Assembly: GCA_965199495.1 (NCBI GenBank)
Contig: CBDASK010000003.1
Coordinates: 3,808,001-3,872,000 of the forward strand
Length of the DNA: 64,000 nucleotides
Direction of reading: 5' to 3'
Source: Abditibacterium sp.
GTDB lineage: Bacteria; Armatimonadota; Abditibacteriia; Abditibacteriales; Abditibacteriaceae
Shown: piece by piece, positions 18,001-27,000 of the stretch
How the letters are laid out: each line of letters begins with the position of its first letter
How positions within the stretch are numbered: the first letter of the stretch is position 1
Program-made: the position numbers

Positions 18001-21000
18001 TAATAGAATGCGCGTTTTTCCTTTTATGGCAGTTTTGGGCAATCTTTTACGTTGGCGGCGCGGCGAATCTTTAGTTCTCGCCGCGCTTTTGCTCGCGTGC
18101 CTATTCATGCCCGCTGCCGCACAGGGCGCGGTTTTGCCGCCGCAACAGGCGCACGCGGTTTTGCTGTGGCTACAAGCCGAAATGACGCCCGCCAGTGCGC
18201 CGCGCGTCGAGCAAACCGGCGATTTTCGCGCGTTATCCAATCGCGATAACAGCCCGATTTATATTTGCACCGTGCCCGTGGCTATAGCTACGCCGCCCGT
18301 AGAGGCGCGTTTGGCGGCGTTGCAAATTGAAGCGCGTCCGGTTGCCATATTTACGCTCGAATCGCACGAAGCCGCGTTTTTGACGGGCGTGCGCAATAAT
18401 CGTCGGCGCAATTGAAAAGCCGCGAAGATGCTCCCACAGAAACACCGACTTGTCGTGTCTAAAAATGGTGGAATTGCTTCAAAACTGCGGCGATTCCACC
18501 GTTTTAGACGCGATGAATCGCCGTCTCTACGGGAGCATCTTCGCGGCTTTTTTGTTCCTTCACGACCCCCAACTCAATATCTCAAAGATAGATAAATCAT
18601 GTCACTGTTAAAAAAAATTTTCGGCTCGTCTGCCGACATCTCCAGCTCCGATACCAAAGGCCAGGGAGTTTTGGGCGCCGTGTCGCGCCTGTTCGATAAA
18701 AACGAAAAAGAGATCGCCCGACTGCGACCGACGGTCGAGAAAATCGGCCAAATTGGAACCGAACTCAAAGGTCTCTCCGACGACGAAATCAAAGCCCGCT
18801 CGCTCAAACTCAAGGCGACTTTTCAGGAAAAAGTCACGCAGCGTTTGAAGGCGCAGGGACTGGAATGGCAGGATTTGTCCGCCCAGAAAGATTGGGACGA
18901 CGCTTATAATAAAGCGCGTCTGGACGCCGAAAAAGCGACATTGGGCGAACTTTTGCCCGAAGCATTCGCCCTCGTGCGCGAAGCGGGCGACCGCACCATT
19001 GGGTTGCGACATTTTGATGTGCAGATCATTGGCGGCGCGGCTTTGCACGAAGGCACCATCACCGAAATGCGGACGGGCGAAGGCAAAACATTGGCAGCCA
19101 CGGCGCCCGCTTATCTTAATGCGTTGACCGGGCGCGGCGTGCATTGTGTGACCGTCAACGATTATTTGGCCGAGCGCGATGCCAACTGGATGCGCCCGGT
19201 TTACGAATTTCTGGGACTTTCTGTCGCGTTTTTGCAAAACGACATGGAGCCAGCCGACCGGCGCGTGGCCTATGCCGCCGACCTTTTGTATGGCACTAAC
19301 TCGGAGTTTGGCTTCGATTATCTGCGCGACAACATGGCGCGCTCGCCCGAAGATATGGTGCAGCGCCCGCTCAATTTCGCCATCATTGACGAGGTAGATA
19401 ACATCCTGATTGACGAGGCGCGCACGCCGCTAATCATCTCGGCCCAGGTCGCCAAAACCGACCGGGCACTGCGTCGCCAAGGCATGAGCAAAACCTGCGA
19501 CGGCGTCGCCAAACAATTGATGCCCGCCATCAATGACCAGGAAGTCGAAGCGTTTATTGACGAGTATTCGACCAAAGGCCGCATCGACATCGGCGGCCTG
19601 AGCGACGCGATTTTCAACGGCGGCGCCTTTCCCCACGCGATTGGTTATTTGATCGATTCGTATCTGGCCTCAGAAAAAACCGCGCGCACCGATAACGCCG
19701 CGCACTTGCTGGACGCCGCCGACGAACTGTTCGCCGATAAATTGATTAACCAAGTCGGCAAGGACGAACTGGAAAAAATGGCCCTAACCGCCACTCGTCC
19801 GCAGTTGTTGAATGAAGCGTGGCGCGGCGAAGTCGAGCATATTCTGGAACCGTTCGAGATGGCGTGGCTCAACGCGCGCGACGGCGAGTGGAACGCGCAA
19901 CTGCTCGCGCACGATTTGACTTTGCCTGAAGACGCGGCGTTCGATTTGGAAGAACATATTTCGCAAAGCGAAGATAAAGCCGAAGCGACTTCGCTACTGA
20001 TTGCCGACGAAATGGCACGCCGTGGCTACATCGAGCAGGACGGCGTTGACGCGATTGCGGGCGCGCTGCAAAACGGGCGCGATGCGTTGCGATTGGCGGT
20101 TTTGGAACAGCCGGGCAGCTTGTCGGACGCCGACAAGGTTTTGAGCGAACACGTTCCGGCGGGCGAAATCAGTTCGACCGAAGATGTGCGCCGCATCGTG
20201 AGCGCGCTCGAAGCGATTACGGCGACCGGGCTGGTGCCGTTCGCCACGACCGAGAAATTGTGGAACACGGTCGAACTTTCGGCTGACCGCGACGCTCTGC
20301 GCGCGCAGTTGACGAGCGTGATCGAGAAGCAGTCGGGCGACGTGGCTACACAAATCGTCGGCTTAGTCGAAGAGTATTCCAAGTCGCGCGAGGCGTTTTT
20401 AACTTCGCAAGCCGCCACATTGCGCGACGCGTTGGGCGGACATGAAGCCGTCGTGAAGTTGGCGCAATCGGGCGCCGGAGCCGACGCGTTGAGCGCGGCT
20501 TTGCAACGCGAACTCGCCAAATCCGGCCCGTTCGCCCAGGCGACGAAAGCGTCGGCACAGTTCGTCAAAGAACAAAACGCGGCTTATGGCGCTGTCGCCG
20601 ACCATTTGATCGAGGAAATGTCGCAGTGGGTCGAGATTCCTCAGGGCGCCAAGAAAACCATCGTTTCGATTTTGGGCGAAGGCGGGCGCGCGCCCGAAGT
20701 CGCCGAACGTTTGCTGCTGGCCGTGCGCGATTTGCCGGGCGATTCGTCCGAACTGGCGGCGATTGCTCAGGATGGCGCGAACCAGTTGCAGGGGTGGCGT
20801 CACGAACAGGCGATTTCGTTCGTCGAGAAAATCGGCGGATTAGTGCCGTTGCCCGATGCAGCCACGTCCGCGATTCAAACCGCCATCGAAGACGGCGACT
20901 TTGGCACCAACGGCTTTGAAGAGTTTGTCGGCGCGCAGTTGCTTTCTTCGGAAACTATCGCGCCTTTGGCGAGTGCCATCGAAAGTTATGGCGAGGCGTG

Positions 21001-24000: not shown

Positions 24001-27000
24001 CATCGTGCAGATCGAGACCGGCGTGGCTGGTCAGAGCACCGACATCGTTTTGGAAAGCGAGGCGCGGCCCGAAGACATCGCGCACACCAGCGACCGCGAC
24101 ATTATCACCGATTTGGGCGGCTTGCACATCATCGGGTCGGAGCGTCACGAGAGCCGCCGCATTGACAACCAGTTGCGCGGGCGCGCCGGTCGCCAGGGCG
24201 ATCCGGGTTCGAGCCGCTTCTACATCTCATTGGATGACGAGCTGTGGCGTCTGTTCGGCACGCGCGGCCAATTCTTGTTGAAGAGTTGGGACGAGGACGA
24301 GCCAGTCGAGGCGGGCATCATTTCCAAGCAGATCGAGCGCGCGCAGAAGAAGGTCGAGCTGAACCACTTCGAGGGCCGCAAACACGTCTTGCAATACGAC
24401 GACGTGATGAACGTGCAACGCGAAGTCATCTACCGCGAACGCCGCCGCGCCTTGCAGGGCGCTGATATCCGCGACACGGTCGTTGATATGGCGCAAAAAG
24501 CGGCGATAACTCAGGCCGACGCGCACGCGCCGCGCGCCGTGCGGCCCGAAGAATGGGACACGCGCAAGCTCTACTTGGGGCTGGGCAAACTGTTCGGACT
24601 GAGCGCGCTCAAAGCGCAAATTTCCGATGATGAACAGTTGGAAGAAGCGAGTTGGCAGGAGTTGCCCGACAACGCGTTGGGCAATCCCAGCTTCGACTTC
24701 ATCCTGCGCGATGGACGCGGTTTGAACGAAATCGTCGAGAAATTGTATCAAGACCGCGAACACGCGTTGGGCACCGACCAAACGCGCGGGCTGGAACGTT
24801 GGCAGGTCATGCGTTCGATTGACGAGCATTGGATGGAGCATCTGGCCGAAATGGACTATTTGCGCGATGCGATCTGGCAGCAAGGCTACGCGCAGCGCGA
24901 GCCGATTGGCGTTTATCGTCAGGAAGGTTTCGAGCTGTTCCAGAAGATGCTGGGCGAAATCCGGCGCGAAGTGACGCAGGCGATCTTCGACTATGACGTG
25001 CCCGATTTCGAGCATGAAGACGCCTCGCCCGAACTGGGCGAGATGATCGAAGCCCGATTAGTGGATGCGTTCGCTGGTGGCGACGATGGTCTGGACGACG
25101 GAACATTGTTGGCCAAAGACGCCGACGGCGTTGACAATGACTTGGTGATGACCACGCAAAACACGCGCGAGGGCGCGCCGGGCGAAGGCAATCCCGATTC
25201 GGCCAGCAACCGCGCGGCGCGGCGGGCGAAGCGGCGCGAGTAAATTAGCAAAAGCCCCGATGCAAACGCATCGGGGCTTTTCTGTTTTGGCACTAAAGGA
25301 GTGATTTGGGCGTTACACTCGCAGATCCGCGAACTACTATTTATATCGGTGGCGGTGTCTAAAAGTGAGGCAGTAGGCCATGCACCCAAAAAAGAAACCT
25401 ATGTCTCAACGCGAAAAAGAGTTCGCAAAGTAACGCCCATGAACTCAAACGTTGAATCGGCGCGATTTTGGGGCGCGGCGGAGCGCCTCGTTTCGCTTGA
25501 TGCGTAAACTCAGGCGTTGCGCAGGAAAAACTGCGCGATCAAACCATGAACTTCTCTCCAATCATAGGCGCTTCGAGCTGGGCGCTGCACTCTGAACTGG
25601 GCGCGCCGCCGATTTTTGGTGTCGAGGCGGGCGCGACGATTCCGCGCTTTGCGCCTTCAAACGCGCGGTTTTCCCTGCTCGAAATGCCCGATTTTCTGGC
25701 GCAGAATGGCTTCGATACCATGCAAATTTGCCATTTCCATTTGCCCTGGCGCGACGAATCGTATTTGGCCGATTTGTGCGCGGCCATCGAAAATTCGGGC
25801 GTGTCGCTGCACGCGCTTCTGGTGGACGAAGGCGATTTGACGCATCCGCAATTTGGCGCGCGCGATGAAAAATGGATCGGCGATTGGTTGCCCGTGGCTG
25901 CTCAGTTGGGCGCGCGCACTCTGCGCGTCATCGCCGGAAAAACTAACGGGCAGGACGCATTGGAGCGTAGCGCATCGGCCCTGCTACGCCTTTGCGAGCG
26001 CGCCGAGAAGTGGGGCGTGCAAATTCAAACCGAAAATTGGTTCGCGCTCTTGAACTCGCCCGACGCCGTTGACGAATTGCTCGCTCGCTGCGAAAACCGC
26101 GTTGGTTTTCTGCTCGATTTTTCCAATTGGAGCGACGCACAACATTTGCAAAACCTCGCGCGAATCGCGCCGCACGCCGCCGCCACGCACGCGCAGGCGA
26201 AATTCTTGGGGCCAGCACAAATTGACGGAACCGAGTTCGCGGCGTGTTTGAATTTGCCTTATGCGCGCGATTTTCGTGGCCCGTTTGTGTTTGTTAATGG
26301 AGGTGCGGACGGAATTTTGACTTTGCGTGATTTCGTGCGCGCCCATTTCGATTGCTAAGTGATGCCTCTTCCCGCGATTCAAGTTCACGCGGACAGCCAC
26401 GGCCCACGGATACGCTGCGAAATGGGCGCGCCCGACGAGCGGAAATCGTTTCGTGGACATCACTTTTAGCGGCATGCCGGGGATAAACTCTTCGTCAGCG
26501 ACGGCGCCTCCACGCAAAACCACGGCAATAAAGTCGAGGCGACTTTTTCGATTCCAGAGTTGCCCGAAGTGCTGGCGGAATCGTTGTTCCCGTGGCTATG
26601 CCGCCACCAAGGCGATCCAATGGCTCGACGAACGCGATGAACGCCGTTTTTTCTGTCGTTGGGCTTCATCACGCCTTATCTGCCGACTTCGTGGGCGAAA
26701 GGGAACAACATCAACAAAATTTCCTTTCGTAACTTGCTGACCCACACTTCAGGGTTTAGCACGGGAGGTTCATCCACGAATTACTCGTTTATGAAGAGTA
26801 AAGTCGCGGCGGGCGTGCCTGCGGTTGGCGGCTATGACTATGAGAATATGAATTTCGGGCTGTGCCGAATTCTGATTCCCATTATCAACGGCGATGTGGA
26901 CAAAGGCACCAGCTCCTTCCCGATTGCGAGCATCAATGATCAAATTTGGGACGCCATAACACTCAAGGCTTACAACACTTATATGCAGAACAAGGTCTTC

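Follow-up and report, generated by a model that had tools for sequence, protein, structure and literature searches.

What has been added to the only SecA of this Abditibacterium sp., a protein of 2.4 times the usual size, and do the roughly 1,150 extra residues serve the export motor or merely ride along with it? The gene lies in a window of 64,000 nucleotides, the whole stretch of DNA analyzed here, and reads from an ATG start as a single uninterrupted frame whose GC content is even (0.55 to 0.63), with no break at the inserts (Table 1). The product passes the cut-offs of two NCBIfam equivalogs, PRK12904 (906.6 bits against 814) and TIGR00963 (853.7 against 800). Its Pfam domains follow the order SecA_DEAD (31-291, hmm 4-230, plus a second stretch), SecA_PP_bind (1007-1076, hmm 47-110), P-loop_SecA (1135-1355, hmm 1-131, plus a second stretch) and SecA_SW (1902-2131, hmm 1-198 of 200). 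Both PF07517 matches in the genome fall within this one frame, meaning that there is one SecA, and SecY is encoded as well. Domains, cut-offs and genome search thus bear out the preliminary description of a sole, complete and giant SecA.

Table 1. Features of the giant secA gene and its product; coordinates count along the window, residues along the protein.
Feature	Residues	Coordinates	Strand	Basis
secA ORF, 2214 aa + stop		18599..25243	+	ORF call, Pfam, NCBIfam
Putative extra N-terminal amphipathic 'LLxxhFG' motif	1-11	18599..18631	+	motif positions, family consensus
NBD1 (DEAD-like motor domain 1) up to PPXD stem strand; Walker A 157, Walker B DEVD 264	31-287	18689..19459	+	Pfam, alignment, motifs
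Insert 1, ~600-aa all-helical acidic domain, ~30 helices	288-895	19460..21283	+	AF2, PPXD profile mapping
PPXD core, complete: first helix, beta-hairpin 933-944, long helix 1009-1040, Pfam-matched second half	896-1100	21284..21898	+	profile alignment, AF2, Pfam
Insert 1b, 54-aa helical insert within PPXD	~967-1020	21497..21658	+	gap vs 18 normal PPXDs; small helices in AF2
End of NBD1 (TGTA 1109) and NBD2 copy A, closing with canonical motif V [11 protein letters not shown] at 1308	1101-1322	21899..22564	+	Pfam, alignments, motifs
Thermus-type helical insert, NBD2 periphery	1187-1279	22157..22435	+	collinear alignment with 2ipc
Insert 2, first part: copy A', degenerate tandem duplicate of NBD2 ~1150-1281	1323-1475	22565..23023	+	hhalign
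Insert 2, middle: acidic alpha/beta region, recurrent 'P-x-W-[LV]-x-x-x-L' helices	1476-1795	23024..23983	+	AF2, VIA
Insert 2, end: pseudo-motif V '[11 protein letters not shown]' at 1806	1796-1835	23984..24103	+	hhalign, family alignment
Rest of NBD2; motif VI [20 protein letters not shown] at 1850	1836-1900	24104..24298	+	alignments, motif
Helical scaffold, wing, IRA1; two-helix-finger motif GYAQ at 2096	1901-2135	24299..25003	+	Pfam SecA_SW, motif
Acidic, poorly conserved C-terminal tail without SEC-C zinc motif	2136-2214	25004..25240	+	Pfam, family alignment

Like housekeeping SecA (SecA1; PRK12904/TIGR00963), the protein has the five canonical domains in order and all motifs (Walker A, DEVD, TGTA, motif V, motif VI and GYAQ), each in one copy, and is encoded once beside SecY; of the solved chains, Thermus thermophilus SecA (2ipc) comes closest to it. 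Judged by these single-copy, highly conserved catalytic and SecY-facing motifs, it is the working housekeeping SecA of the organism. Peculiar to the giant are a helical domain where the PPXD begins, a 54-aa insertion further inside that domain, 506 aa placed between motif V and motif VI, and a second N-terminal amphipathic motif. SEC-C (PF02810) was not found in it by Pfam and is carried by some members of the giant-SecA family.

Two of the smaller peculiarities lie in the canonical parts. The extra 'LLxxhFG' motif precedes the canonical N-terminal 'LFDKNEKE' (residue 31) by about 20 aa, with F8 invariant and L7 nearly so in the family consensus; normal SecAs of the phylum start directly at 'LFDxNERE'. 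Read by eye and unscored, residues 1 to 11 look like an additional copy of the amphipathic N-terminal motif. The other is the helical insert at the NBD2 periphery. The part of Khadka, Persaud & Gupta 2019 (PMC7023208) used here describes SecA inserts of 50 aa in NBD1 of Thermotogales and Aquificales and of 76 aa in NBD2 of Thermales, the latter, whose location we took from that source, as confined to Thermales and a single Firmicute. Of the 34 phylum rows, 26 had both anchors matched, and in 24 of these the spacing from beta1 to NAK is about 115, so the Thermus-type insert appears to run through the whole sample of the phylum, and an insert at the site that those pages treat as restricted is phylum-wide among the sampled Armatimonadota. 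The two large inserts resemble the inserts described there in being surface-exposed, lineage-conserved and placed in ATPase domains, and the giant SecA itself carries the Thermales-type insert; they differ from that published set in being 7 to 12 times longer, in that one is a self-duplication, and in a host lineage that is not thermophile-only.

Insert 1 (about residues 290 to 895) separates the stem strand of the PPXD from its first helix. AF2 of the insert together with the PPXD gave a mean pLDDT of 81.2, with 711 of 831 residues at 70 or above and a pTM of 0.67, and the net charge over residues 288 to 930 is -41. Structure searches found no fold match among solved structures, nor did we recognize internal repeats or a known functional family in the insert or find relatives of it outside giant SecA. 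A profile of 18 normal-size PPXDs aligns to residues 877 to 1111 (Prob 100, 160 columns), and therefore the whole PPXD is present, although its first half had been thought missing. The same alignment moves the boundaries first drawn at 292 and 1006, while the claim of a confidently predicted all-helical fold with no match among solved structures holds.

Insert 2 has a different origin. Against E. coli SecA (2fsf), residues 1277 to 1326 correspond to chain residues 465 to 514 and residues 1833 to 1888 to 537 to 592; therefore residues 1327 to 1832, rather than 1356 to 1793 as first delimited, stand in for 22 E. coli residues (515 to 536). The block opens with what hhalign scores as a second NBD2. 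Copy A', which spans a helix, beta1, a helix, the Thermus-type insert and beta2, matches NBD2 residues 1150 to 1281 over 132 columns (Prob 96.6 to 97.2, E 6.6e-10), and its score of 70.7 compares with a mean of 13.3 (sd 2.3, maximum 20.3) for 150 column shuffles. Against NBD1 the probability is only 2.3, and the copy A' HMM lands, weakly (5.3 to 9.1 bits), on the start of NBD2 in all four outgroup SecAs. The block closes with a pseudo-motif V, which has 10 invariant residues between 1806 and 1819 in 37 sequences and whose HMM matches motif V in four of four outgroups (3.3 to 11.5 bits). Residues 1276 to 1322 align to 1780 to 1835 with a score of 22.8 (shuffles: mean 9.0, maximum 18.4), and the second P-loop_SecA stretch overlaps the first at hmm 75-131. 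The strands of the pseudo-motif were poorly predicted in the isolated insert model (pLDDT 35 to 58 over model residues 461 to 513). As its sequence reads, insert 2 is a decayed second copy, in tandem, of the initial two thirds of NBD2, beginning at the helix that precedes beta1 and ending with motif V; it is not the lineage-specific orphan of the preliminary description.

Nested within copy A' sit about 320 aa of acidic alpha/beta modules (net charge -30) that are weakly winged-helix-like. AF2 of insert 2 gave a pLDDT of 86.3 and an alpha/beta structure, which removes the claim that both insertions are all-helical. The best VIA matches to the model had Z scores of 5.5 (1p4x, rmsd 3.8, 84 aligned) and 5.1; winged-helix proteins top both lists and recur further down, with every Z at or below 5.5 against the tool's noise guide of about 8. 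We predict from this weak likeness that the middle consists of tandem winged-helix-like modules. The deepest family has a version of it with about 120 aa fewer. Within the reach of the searches, stand-alone relatives, a point that had been left open for the inserts, were found neither for this insert nor for insert 1.

The build is conserved in length and sequence within the class, as had been proposed. The split DEAD match was present in all 31 class genomes, 25 of which have open frames of 2143 to 2356 aa, and 45 giant-SecA proteins are 42 to 96% identical over insert 2. These giants (type A) form one clade in a tree on 950 canonical columns (SH-aLRT 100). Insert lengths are tight within the family (640 to 694 and 306 to 352 aa), and residues 1280 to 1322 reach 94% all-pairs identity there. 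dN/dS is 0.12 to 0.135 for insert 1, 0.067 to 0.105 for insert 2 (0.07 to 0.09 in its middle part) and 0.015 to 0.063 for the canonical parts, with dS of 0.41 to 0.77. Both large inserts are under purifying selection, kept in length and confidently folded in prediction, and three lineage-specific accretions, namely the helical domain with the 54-aa insert, the NBD2 duplication and the nested modules, were fixed before the class radiated.

The explanation that we favor, at roughly even odds (about 0.5), is a housekeeping SecA whose accretions act as accessory domains on the jaws of the preprotein clamp. Its functional part, taken as a whole, we hold a little more tentatively. Copy A would remain the catalytic NBD2, and copy A' with its nested modules would form an extra lobe at the site of the small variable (VAR) region of E. 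coli, which we take to lie at about residues 519 to 547. That subdomain is reported by Das et al. 2012 (J Bacteriol) to regulate ATPase activity and ADP release, and by analogy the lobe may tune the turnover of ATP and the release of ADP. In both proteins the site is the same, after helicase motif V and before motif VI, and it is naturally variable, as these motifs lie 42 to 97 residues apart in normal-size SecAs of this phylum; yet insert 2 is some 20 times larger than VAR and combines a decayed NBD2 duplicate with nested alpha/beta modules, where VAR is a short helical hairpin. The helical domain of insert 1 would ride on the PPXD, the mobile jaw of the clamp. Because both inserts, judged by the general architecture of SecA, presumably flank the clamp and so sit on its two jaws (PPXD and NBD2), they could serve clients or partners as extra surfaces for docking or holding. 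Their strong negative charge may keep them off the anionic membrane and favor basic ligands, of which the N-regions of signal peptides and ribosomal proteins would be examples. Alongside this proposal we note that SecB (PF02556) was not found in this 95% complete genome, nor SEC-C in this protein. Many bacteria whose SecA is ordinary lack SecB too, which makes its absence here a weak argument for an accessory role.

A credible second possibility, to which we give less weight, is constructive neutral evolution: duplication and accretion at permissive surface sites would have left tolerated passengers without a specific role, and selection would do no more than keep them folded, soluble and clear of the working parts, since an unfolded appendage of 1,100 aa would harm an essential motor. 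The inserts evolve 2 to 4 times faster than the core, which fits passengers as well and counts against an accessory role; insert 1 has no recognized functional family or fold, and insert 2 is partly decayed self-sequence. Another family of the phylum (f18), with SecA open frames of 2,494 to 2,608 aa, adds to this. Its member P0056 (2512 aa) is a complete SecA with SecA_SW and SEC-C. The f18 protein, at more than 2,400 aa, is likewise complete and sole-type, but unlike the Abditibacteriia giant it has NBD1, PPXD and NBD2 of normal size, and its extra ~1,400 aa form about 19 tandem HWD-like units within the wing domain. It belongs to a separate clade, so the enlargement arose independently. Growth at so different a place suggests loose size constraint on SecA in the phylum; the view that giant SecA is confined to Abditibacteriia-like bacteria stands for this build, and fails in that f18 enlarged its SecA elsewhere in the protein. 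Against the passenger reading, a dN/dS of 0.07 to 0.14 is strong constraint for 1,100 residues, lengths hardly vary across the 4 families and 10 genera, the inserts contain many invariant residues (the whole pseudo-motif V and several Trp among them), and loss of either insert was not seen in any class lineage among the 31 genomes.

That the inserts are degenerate inteins or remnants of other mobile elements, unable to splice and retained in the mature protein, is very improbable. Conserved ATPase motifs are favored intein sites, the genome does hold inteins, and a few LAGLIDADG endonucleases stand low in the Foldseek list for insert 2 (E 0.17 to 0.2, probability about 0.1). Nonetheless, SecA gave no Hint, intein or LAGLIDADG match at E<=1 with the library that detected the inteins in RNR and DnaE, in agreement with the first reading of the inserts as non-inteins; insert 1 is all-helical, insert 2 starts and ends with SecA's own NBD2 sequence, and neither endonucleases nor Hint folds are among the best 50 VIA-align matches for insert 2 (about 48,000 chains). 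Giant SecA_DEAD proteins occur in Omnitrophota and Actinobacteria and, in the portion of West-Roberts et al. 2023 (bioRxiv 10.1101/2023.11.21.568195) drawn on here, are likewise very large holders of SecA motor domains, but secondary and membrane-anchored, of tens of thousands of residues, without wing/scaffold and beside a normal SecA; the Abditibacterium SecA, in contrast, is complete, the only one, and without a membrane-like segment (top Kyte-Doolittle 19-mer average 1.55). That our protein is such a secondary paralogue, or a misassembled, fused or broken gene, is hardly credible: the match in class genome G023 has two stops and six class genomes show pieces only, but these assemblies are fragmented (30 to 680 contigs, 63 to 92% complete), the same uninterrupted frame recurs in 25 of the 31 genomes, single-contig assemblies among them, and the protein is its genome's only SecA, above the equivalog cut-offs and with the wing/scaffold that the Omnitrophota giants, on that partial account, lack.

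In short, the single SecA of this bacterium, an essential export motor, has gained a large helical domain and a decayed copy of part of its own NBD2, and selection has kept both.

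The secA gene of this Abditibacterium genome is intact, with an even base composition along its frame (GC 0.55-0.63), and the Pfam domains of the 2,214-residue product follow the canonical order SecA_DEAD, SecA_PP_bind, P-loop_SecA and SecA_SW. The protein passed the cut-offs of the NCBIfam models PRK12904 (906.6 bits; cut-off 814) and TIGR00963 (853.7; cut-off 800), fell under the cut-off of every NCBIfam SecA2 model, and matched 25 distinct SecA sequences of solved structures, with that of Thermus thermophilus (2ipc) at the top. Each catalytic motif occurs in one copy and is invariant or nearly so among 37 aligned family members. 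On every feature that could be tested the protein belongs to the SecA family, and its role in translocation is assigned by homology. A SecY of ordinary size is also encoded. The claim that this is the sole SecA agrees with our scan of the 95%-complete genome, in which both SecA_DEAD matches fall inside the one frame. Read by eye, the N-terminus carries an extra amphipathic motif of the form LLxxhFG about 20 residues ahead of the canonical LFDKNEKE (consensus LFDxNExE) at residue 31; the normal SecAs of the phylum begin at the LFDKNEKE-type motif, without the extra one.

Coordinates of the giant SecA, its motifs and the other loci discussed (G000, source genome; G023, another genome of the class; L0xx, loci; f18, a second family of the phylum)
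Feature	Position	Strand	Remark
secA open reading frame	window 18599-25243	+	2214 codons, uninterrupted, ATG start
Extra N-terminal motif	window 18599-18631 (residues 1-11)		LLKKIFG at residue 3
Walker A	residue 157		NBD1, MRTGEGKT
Walker B	residue 264		NBD1, DEVD
PF01043 (PPXD)	residues 1007-1076		Pfam match
Thermus-type helical insert	window 22157-22435 (residues 1187-1279)		NBD2 periphery
Motif V	residue 1308		NBD2, [10 protein letters not shown]
Motif VI	residue 1850		NBD2, [18 protein letters not shown]
Two-helix finger	residue 2096		GYAQ; SecA_SW covers hmm 1-198 of 200
135-aa ORF	window 18008-18415	+	183 bp upstream of secA
SMC protein	window 32115-35918	+	1267 aa, ~7 kb downstream of secA
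f18 giant SecA P0056	L004:553-8091	+	
f18 giant SecA	L003:1154-8968	-	
f18 giant SecA	L005:1319-8908	-	
f18 giant SecA	L006		
G023 secA match	G023:C12:522189-525513		one TGA and one TAA
Class II ribonucleotide reductase (RNR)	G000:C3:1532333-1537909 (L040)		1858 aa; Intein_splicing, LAGLIDADG_3
DnaE	G000:C3:3579570-3584528 (L046)		1652 aa; Intein_splicing
DEAD/Helicase_C/MZB helicase	G000:C3:1177807-1183752 (L039)		1980 aa
DEAD/Helicase_C/MZB helicase	G000:C3:976554-982046 (L041)		1829 aa

The two large inserts do not lie quite where the preliminary description had placed them, at residues 292-1006 and 1356-1793. Insert 1 occupies roughly residues 290-895, between the stem strand (~280-283) and the first helix of the preprotein-crosslinking domain (PPXD), and comes after ...[10 protein letters not shown]; a second small insert of 54 residues (~967-1020) lies inside the PPXD. 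Insert 2 occupies residues 1327-1832, opening with SLDGES and closing within DIITDLGG. Residues 1277-1326 align to 465-514 of the E. coli SecA chain and residues 1833-1888 to 537-592, so that residues 1327-1832 replace 22 E. coli residues between motifs V and VI of the second nucleotide-binding domain (NBD2). A profile built from 18 PPXDs of normal size, all of this phylum, aligned to residues 877-1111 with a probability of 100, with one gap of 54 residues opposite residues ~967-1020. This match extends over 160 columns, and the PPXD is therefore complete; the first half that had been thought missing is present. BLASTP of the region against an f18 SecA aligned from residue 1030 onward only, and the profile comparison revealed the rest.

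The ends of insert 2 resemble NBD2 itself. A profile-profile comparison of residues 1150-1322 with residues 1323-1835 gave a probability of 96.6 (E 6.6e-10) over 132 collinear columns. Scored on match columns only, the comparison reached 70.7, against 14.3 for the reversed target and a mean of 13.3 (sd 2.3, maximum 20.3) for 150 column-shuffled targets. The end of the insert (1780-1835) scored 22.8 against the region of the motif V strand (1276-1322), where shuffles averaged 9.0 and reached at most 18.4, and NBD1 as a target for the duplicate region gave a probability of just 2.3. HMMs built from the two ends of insert 2 found the start of NBD2 and motif V, respectively, as their best match in all four outgroup SecAs, at low scores of 3.3-11.5 bits. 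The similarity to NBD2 went unseen in a single-sequence phmmer search of the duplicate region against PDB sequences (one irrelevant match, E 0.51), and self-BLASTP of the whole protein gave no off-diagonal match. A pseudo-motif V, [12 protein letters not shown], lies at residue 1806, with 10 residues invariant within 1806-1819 across 37 sequences. The simplest reading of these alignments is a tandem duplication of everything between the helix ahead of strand 1 and motif V, both included; the second copy would have decayed, and some 320 residues would have been nested in it. The same layout, with a nested part ~120 residues shorter, is found in the deepest-branching family of the class.

The duplicated NBD2 segment includes a helical insert at the NBD2 periphery, as in Thermus. 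A counterpart of similar length stands at the same site (loci L003-L028) in 24 of the 26 readable rows when 34 SecAs of the phylum were examined, the spacing from NBD2 strand 1 to NAK being ~115 residues in these 24. PMC7023208 describes a 76-aa NBD2 insert that is said to occur in no bacteria but Thermales and a single Firmicute; inserts 1 and 2 differ in size and origin from the 50-aa and 76-aa SecA inserts treated there.

Structure prediction upheld one half of the earlier view that both inserts are all-helical. In the model of the PPXD with insert 1 (residues 274-1104; pLDDT 81.2, pTM 0.67), about 30 helices are predicted ahead of residue 895, followed by the PPXD hairpin and then the long PPXD helix. 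Insert 2, in contrast, modeled alone from a 37-row alignment, is predicted to be alpha/beta (mean pLDDT 86.3, pTM 0.61). The predicted order at its ends mirrors that of NBD2 (helix, strand, helix, helical block, strand ... strand, strand); the last 50 residues are poorly modeled, with pLDDT of 35-58 for the final strands. Foldseek against the PDB returned no match at E<=1e-3 for either model, and no SecA chain appeared in the VIA-align or Foldseek lists for insert 2. For insert 1, the wide VIA-align search peaked at Z 8.1 with unspecific hairpins of long helices, a value inside the noise range that the tool gives for helical models. In the middle of the insert 2 model, the order H1-S1-H2-H3-S2-S3 occurs twice (model residues ~238-311 and 312-405). 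The best of 48,161 chains compared with insert 2 by VIA-align was SarS (1p4x; Z 5.5, rmsd 3.8, 84 aligned residues), and a rerun on Foldseek's top 971 chains gave similar winged-helix matches at Z of at most 5.1. Winged-helix proteins top both lists and recur in them (SarS/SarR/SarA, MarR, PadR, ORC, Cdt1, kleisins, p45C and MAGE) at Z 4.0-5.5, rmsd 2.5-8 and 59-122 aligned residues. These Z values are below VIA-align's own noise guide, and we therefore call the predicted nested modules winged-helix-like and no more. At the sequence level, repeats were undetected inside the middle of insert 2 (probability at most 15.5), where recurrent P-x-W-L helices were seen by eye only; comparing insert 1 with itself and with the rest of SecA likewise revealed neither repeats nor an origin within the protein (probability at most 13.8).

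The check for stand-alone relatives of the inserts, which had been outstanding, returned only SecA-derived sequences. A word-indexed search of shorter proteins gave 9 matches to insert 1, all fragments of giant SecAs (6 with SecA Pfam domains, 3 being pieces 90-95% identical), and 13 to insert 2, all with SecA domains. An exhaustive HMMER search with insert 1 through 1.84 billion representatives yielded 16 matches at E<=1e-3, all giant SecAs or fragments of them, including three short ones (123-257 aa) that finish in frameshift-like tails. The ESM Atlas offered nothing usable for either insert. Two helicases of the source genome (L039 and L041) have ~730-770 residues between their two RecA-like domains, and one of them ends in a MIT_C (PLD-like) domain; they are not relatives of insert 1, because the full HMMER search gave no protein other than SecA.

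The anatomy of the giant SecA, part of its origin and the constraint on it are shown; its mechanism is inferred. In SecA structures the preprotein clamp has the PPXD and NBD2 as its jaws, and the inserts would therefore flank the clamp, insert 1 traveling with the PPXD. Copy A, the canonical NBD2, should remain catalytic, because it keeps the invariant motif V, which would work with motif VI; the decayed copy A' and the modules nested in it would make up an additional lobe, at a site whose length varies (42-97 residues between motifs V and VI among normal SecAs of the phylum). This site, opposite E. coli residues 515-536, is that of the E. coli variable subdomain; the two are likened by position, the E. 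coli counterpart, at 22 residues, being too short to score. As Das et al. 2012 reportedly found, the variable subdomain of E. coli NBD2 regulates ATPase activity and ADP release. SecB was not found in the 95%-complete genome and the 2,214-residue protein is without a SEC-C motif, which makes it plausible that the inserts serve to dock or hold clients or partners. We put the probability that the inserts carry a specific regulatory or docking function at about 45%.

A somewhat less probable alternative is that the inserts are tolerated passengers. Their lengths are nearly constant across 37 proteins, and insert 1 has an all-pairs identity of 0.50 and insert 2 one of 0.44-0.55, against 0.69-0.94 for the canonical parts. 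Compared with two congeners at dS 0.41-0.77, dN/dS is 0.12-0.135 in insert 1, 0.067-0.105 in insert 2 and 0.015-0.063 in the canonical regions. Both inserts are strongly acidic (net charge -41 and -30, respectively), and no membrane-like segment was found in the giant SecA, inserts included. A bolder elaboration of the regulatory or docking function, which we consider unlikely, is that A' with its invariant pseudo-motif V acts as a catalytically dead third RecA-like lobe, a pseudo-ATPase regulator within the protein that gates the true nucleotide cleft, and, with insert 1, encloses an antechamber above the clamp in which unfolded clients are held; SecA itself would then have absorbed a holdase function in bacteria for which no SecB was found.

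That the inserts are not inteins, as the preliminary description held, was borne out: SecA has no Hint or LAGLIDADG Pfam family at E<=1, the same library finds the inteins of RNR and DnaE, and the junction residues (Cys/Ser ... His-Asn + Cys/Ser/Thr) are missing at the mapped boundaries of both inserts. General protein bloat was also looked for: among the 20 other largest ORFs, the only oversized housekeeping proteins are the intein-bearing RNR and DnaE plus an RpoC of 1590 aa.

Directly upstream of secA lies an ORF of 135 aa that matches no Pfam family and begins like a signal peptide. A relative (32-93% identical) stands at the same place in 8 of 12 other genomes of the genus, with a ninth on another contig, and the same query found none in the other 9 genera of the class. 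We dropped this ORF as a candidate SecA partner, since it is next to secA within the genus only. Besides the SMC protein, the neighbors are a TPR protein, an SLT transglycosylase, an NPCBM/Cu-amine-oxidase-N protein, a sugar-phosphate isomerase-like protein, a malate/lactate dehydrogenase, UxaE and UxaC, none of which is related to secretion.

Each of the 31 class genomes, which span 4 families and 10 genera, showed the split DEAD match, and none of them has a normal-size SecA. The frame is open over 2143-2356 aa in 25, present as pieces only in 5 fragmented assemblies, and interrupted by two stops in one (G023), where the match is split into short frames; in this 79%-complete assembly the gene is either broken or wrongly assembled. 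Across the phylum, SecA was matched in 150 of 151 sampled genomes. Complete frames outside the class measure 973-1294 aa, except in family f18 (2494-2608 aa; all open-frame lengths); one 1580-aa open frame is an ordinary SecA of 1129 aa from its first start codon. The earlier statement that giant SecA is confined to Abditibacteriia-like bacteria accordingly stands for this build and fails for giant SecA at large. NBD1, PPXD and NBD2 are normal in the f18 proteins, and ~1,400 residues split the wing domain. These extra residues are a tandem array of ~19 HWD-like units, and every unit has a W-P-[LV] motif; a single-unit search adds 7 at domain E<0.03, and subsequent iterations were self-trained. 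SEC-C is retained in two of the three f18 proteins scanned. In a tree of 950 canonical columns, unrooted and built from within-phylum sequences only, each giant type falls into a clade of its own (SH-aLRT 100 each) with normal SecAs between the two, which indicates that they arose independently.

We found no description of a giant housekeeping SecA from Abditibacteriota or Armatimonadota in the literature searched. The giant SecA_DEAD proteins of Omnitrophota, as presented in bioRxiv 10.1101/2023.11.21.568195, are secondary proteins with membrane segments and without wing/scaffold domains, found beside a normal SecA; the protein described here, by contrast, has wing and scaffold domains, no membrane-like segment and no second SecA at its side.

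Few molecular motors have been studied as much as SecA, in work based on proteins of 780-1,000 residues. Here a natural, single-copy, essential SecA carries ~1,150 extra residues, predicted to be folded, on both domains that close around the substrate and open again, and one of the additions appears to be a half-duplicated motor domain. Functional inserts would show an SF2-type motor gaining regulators in cis or surfaces that hold clients; as passengers, the inserts would indicate how much added bulk is compatible with the PPXD swing and the NBD2 cycle. A length above 2,200 aa appears to have been reached twice in one phylum, by a PPXD insert with an NBD2 duplication in Abditibacteriia and by tandem wing-domain units in f18, and the two giant types offer a comparative system for asking why the constraint on SecA size was relaxed.
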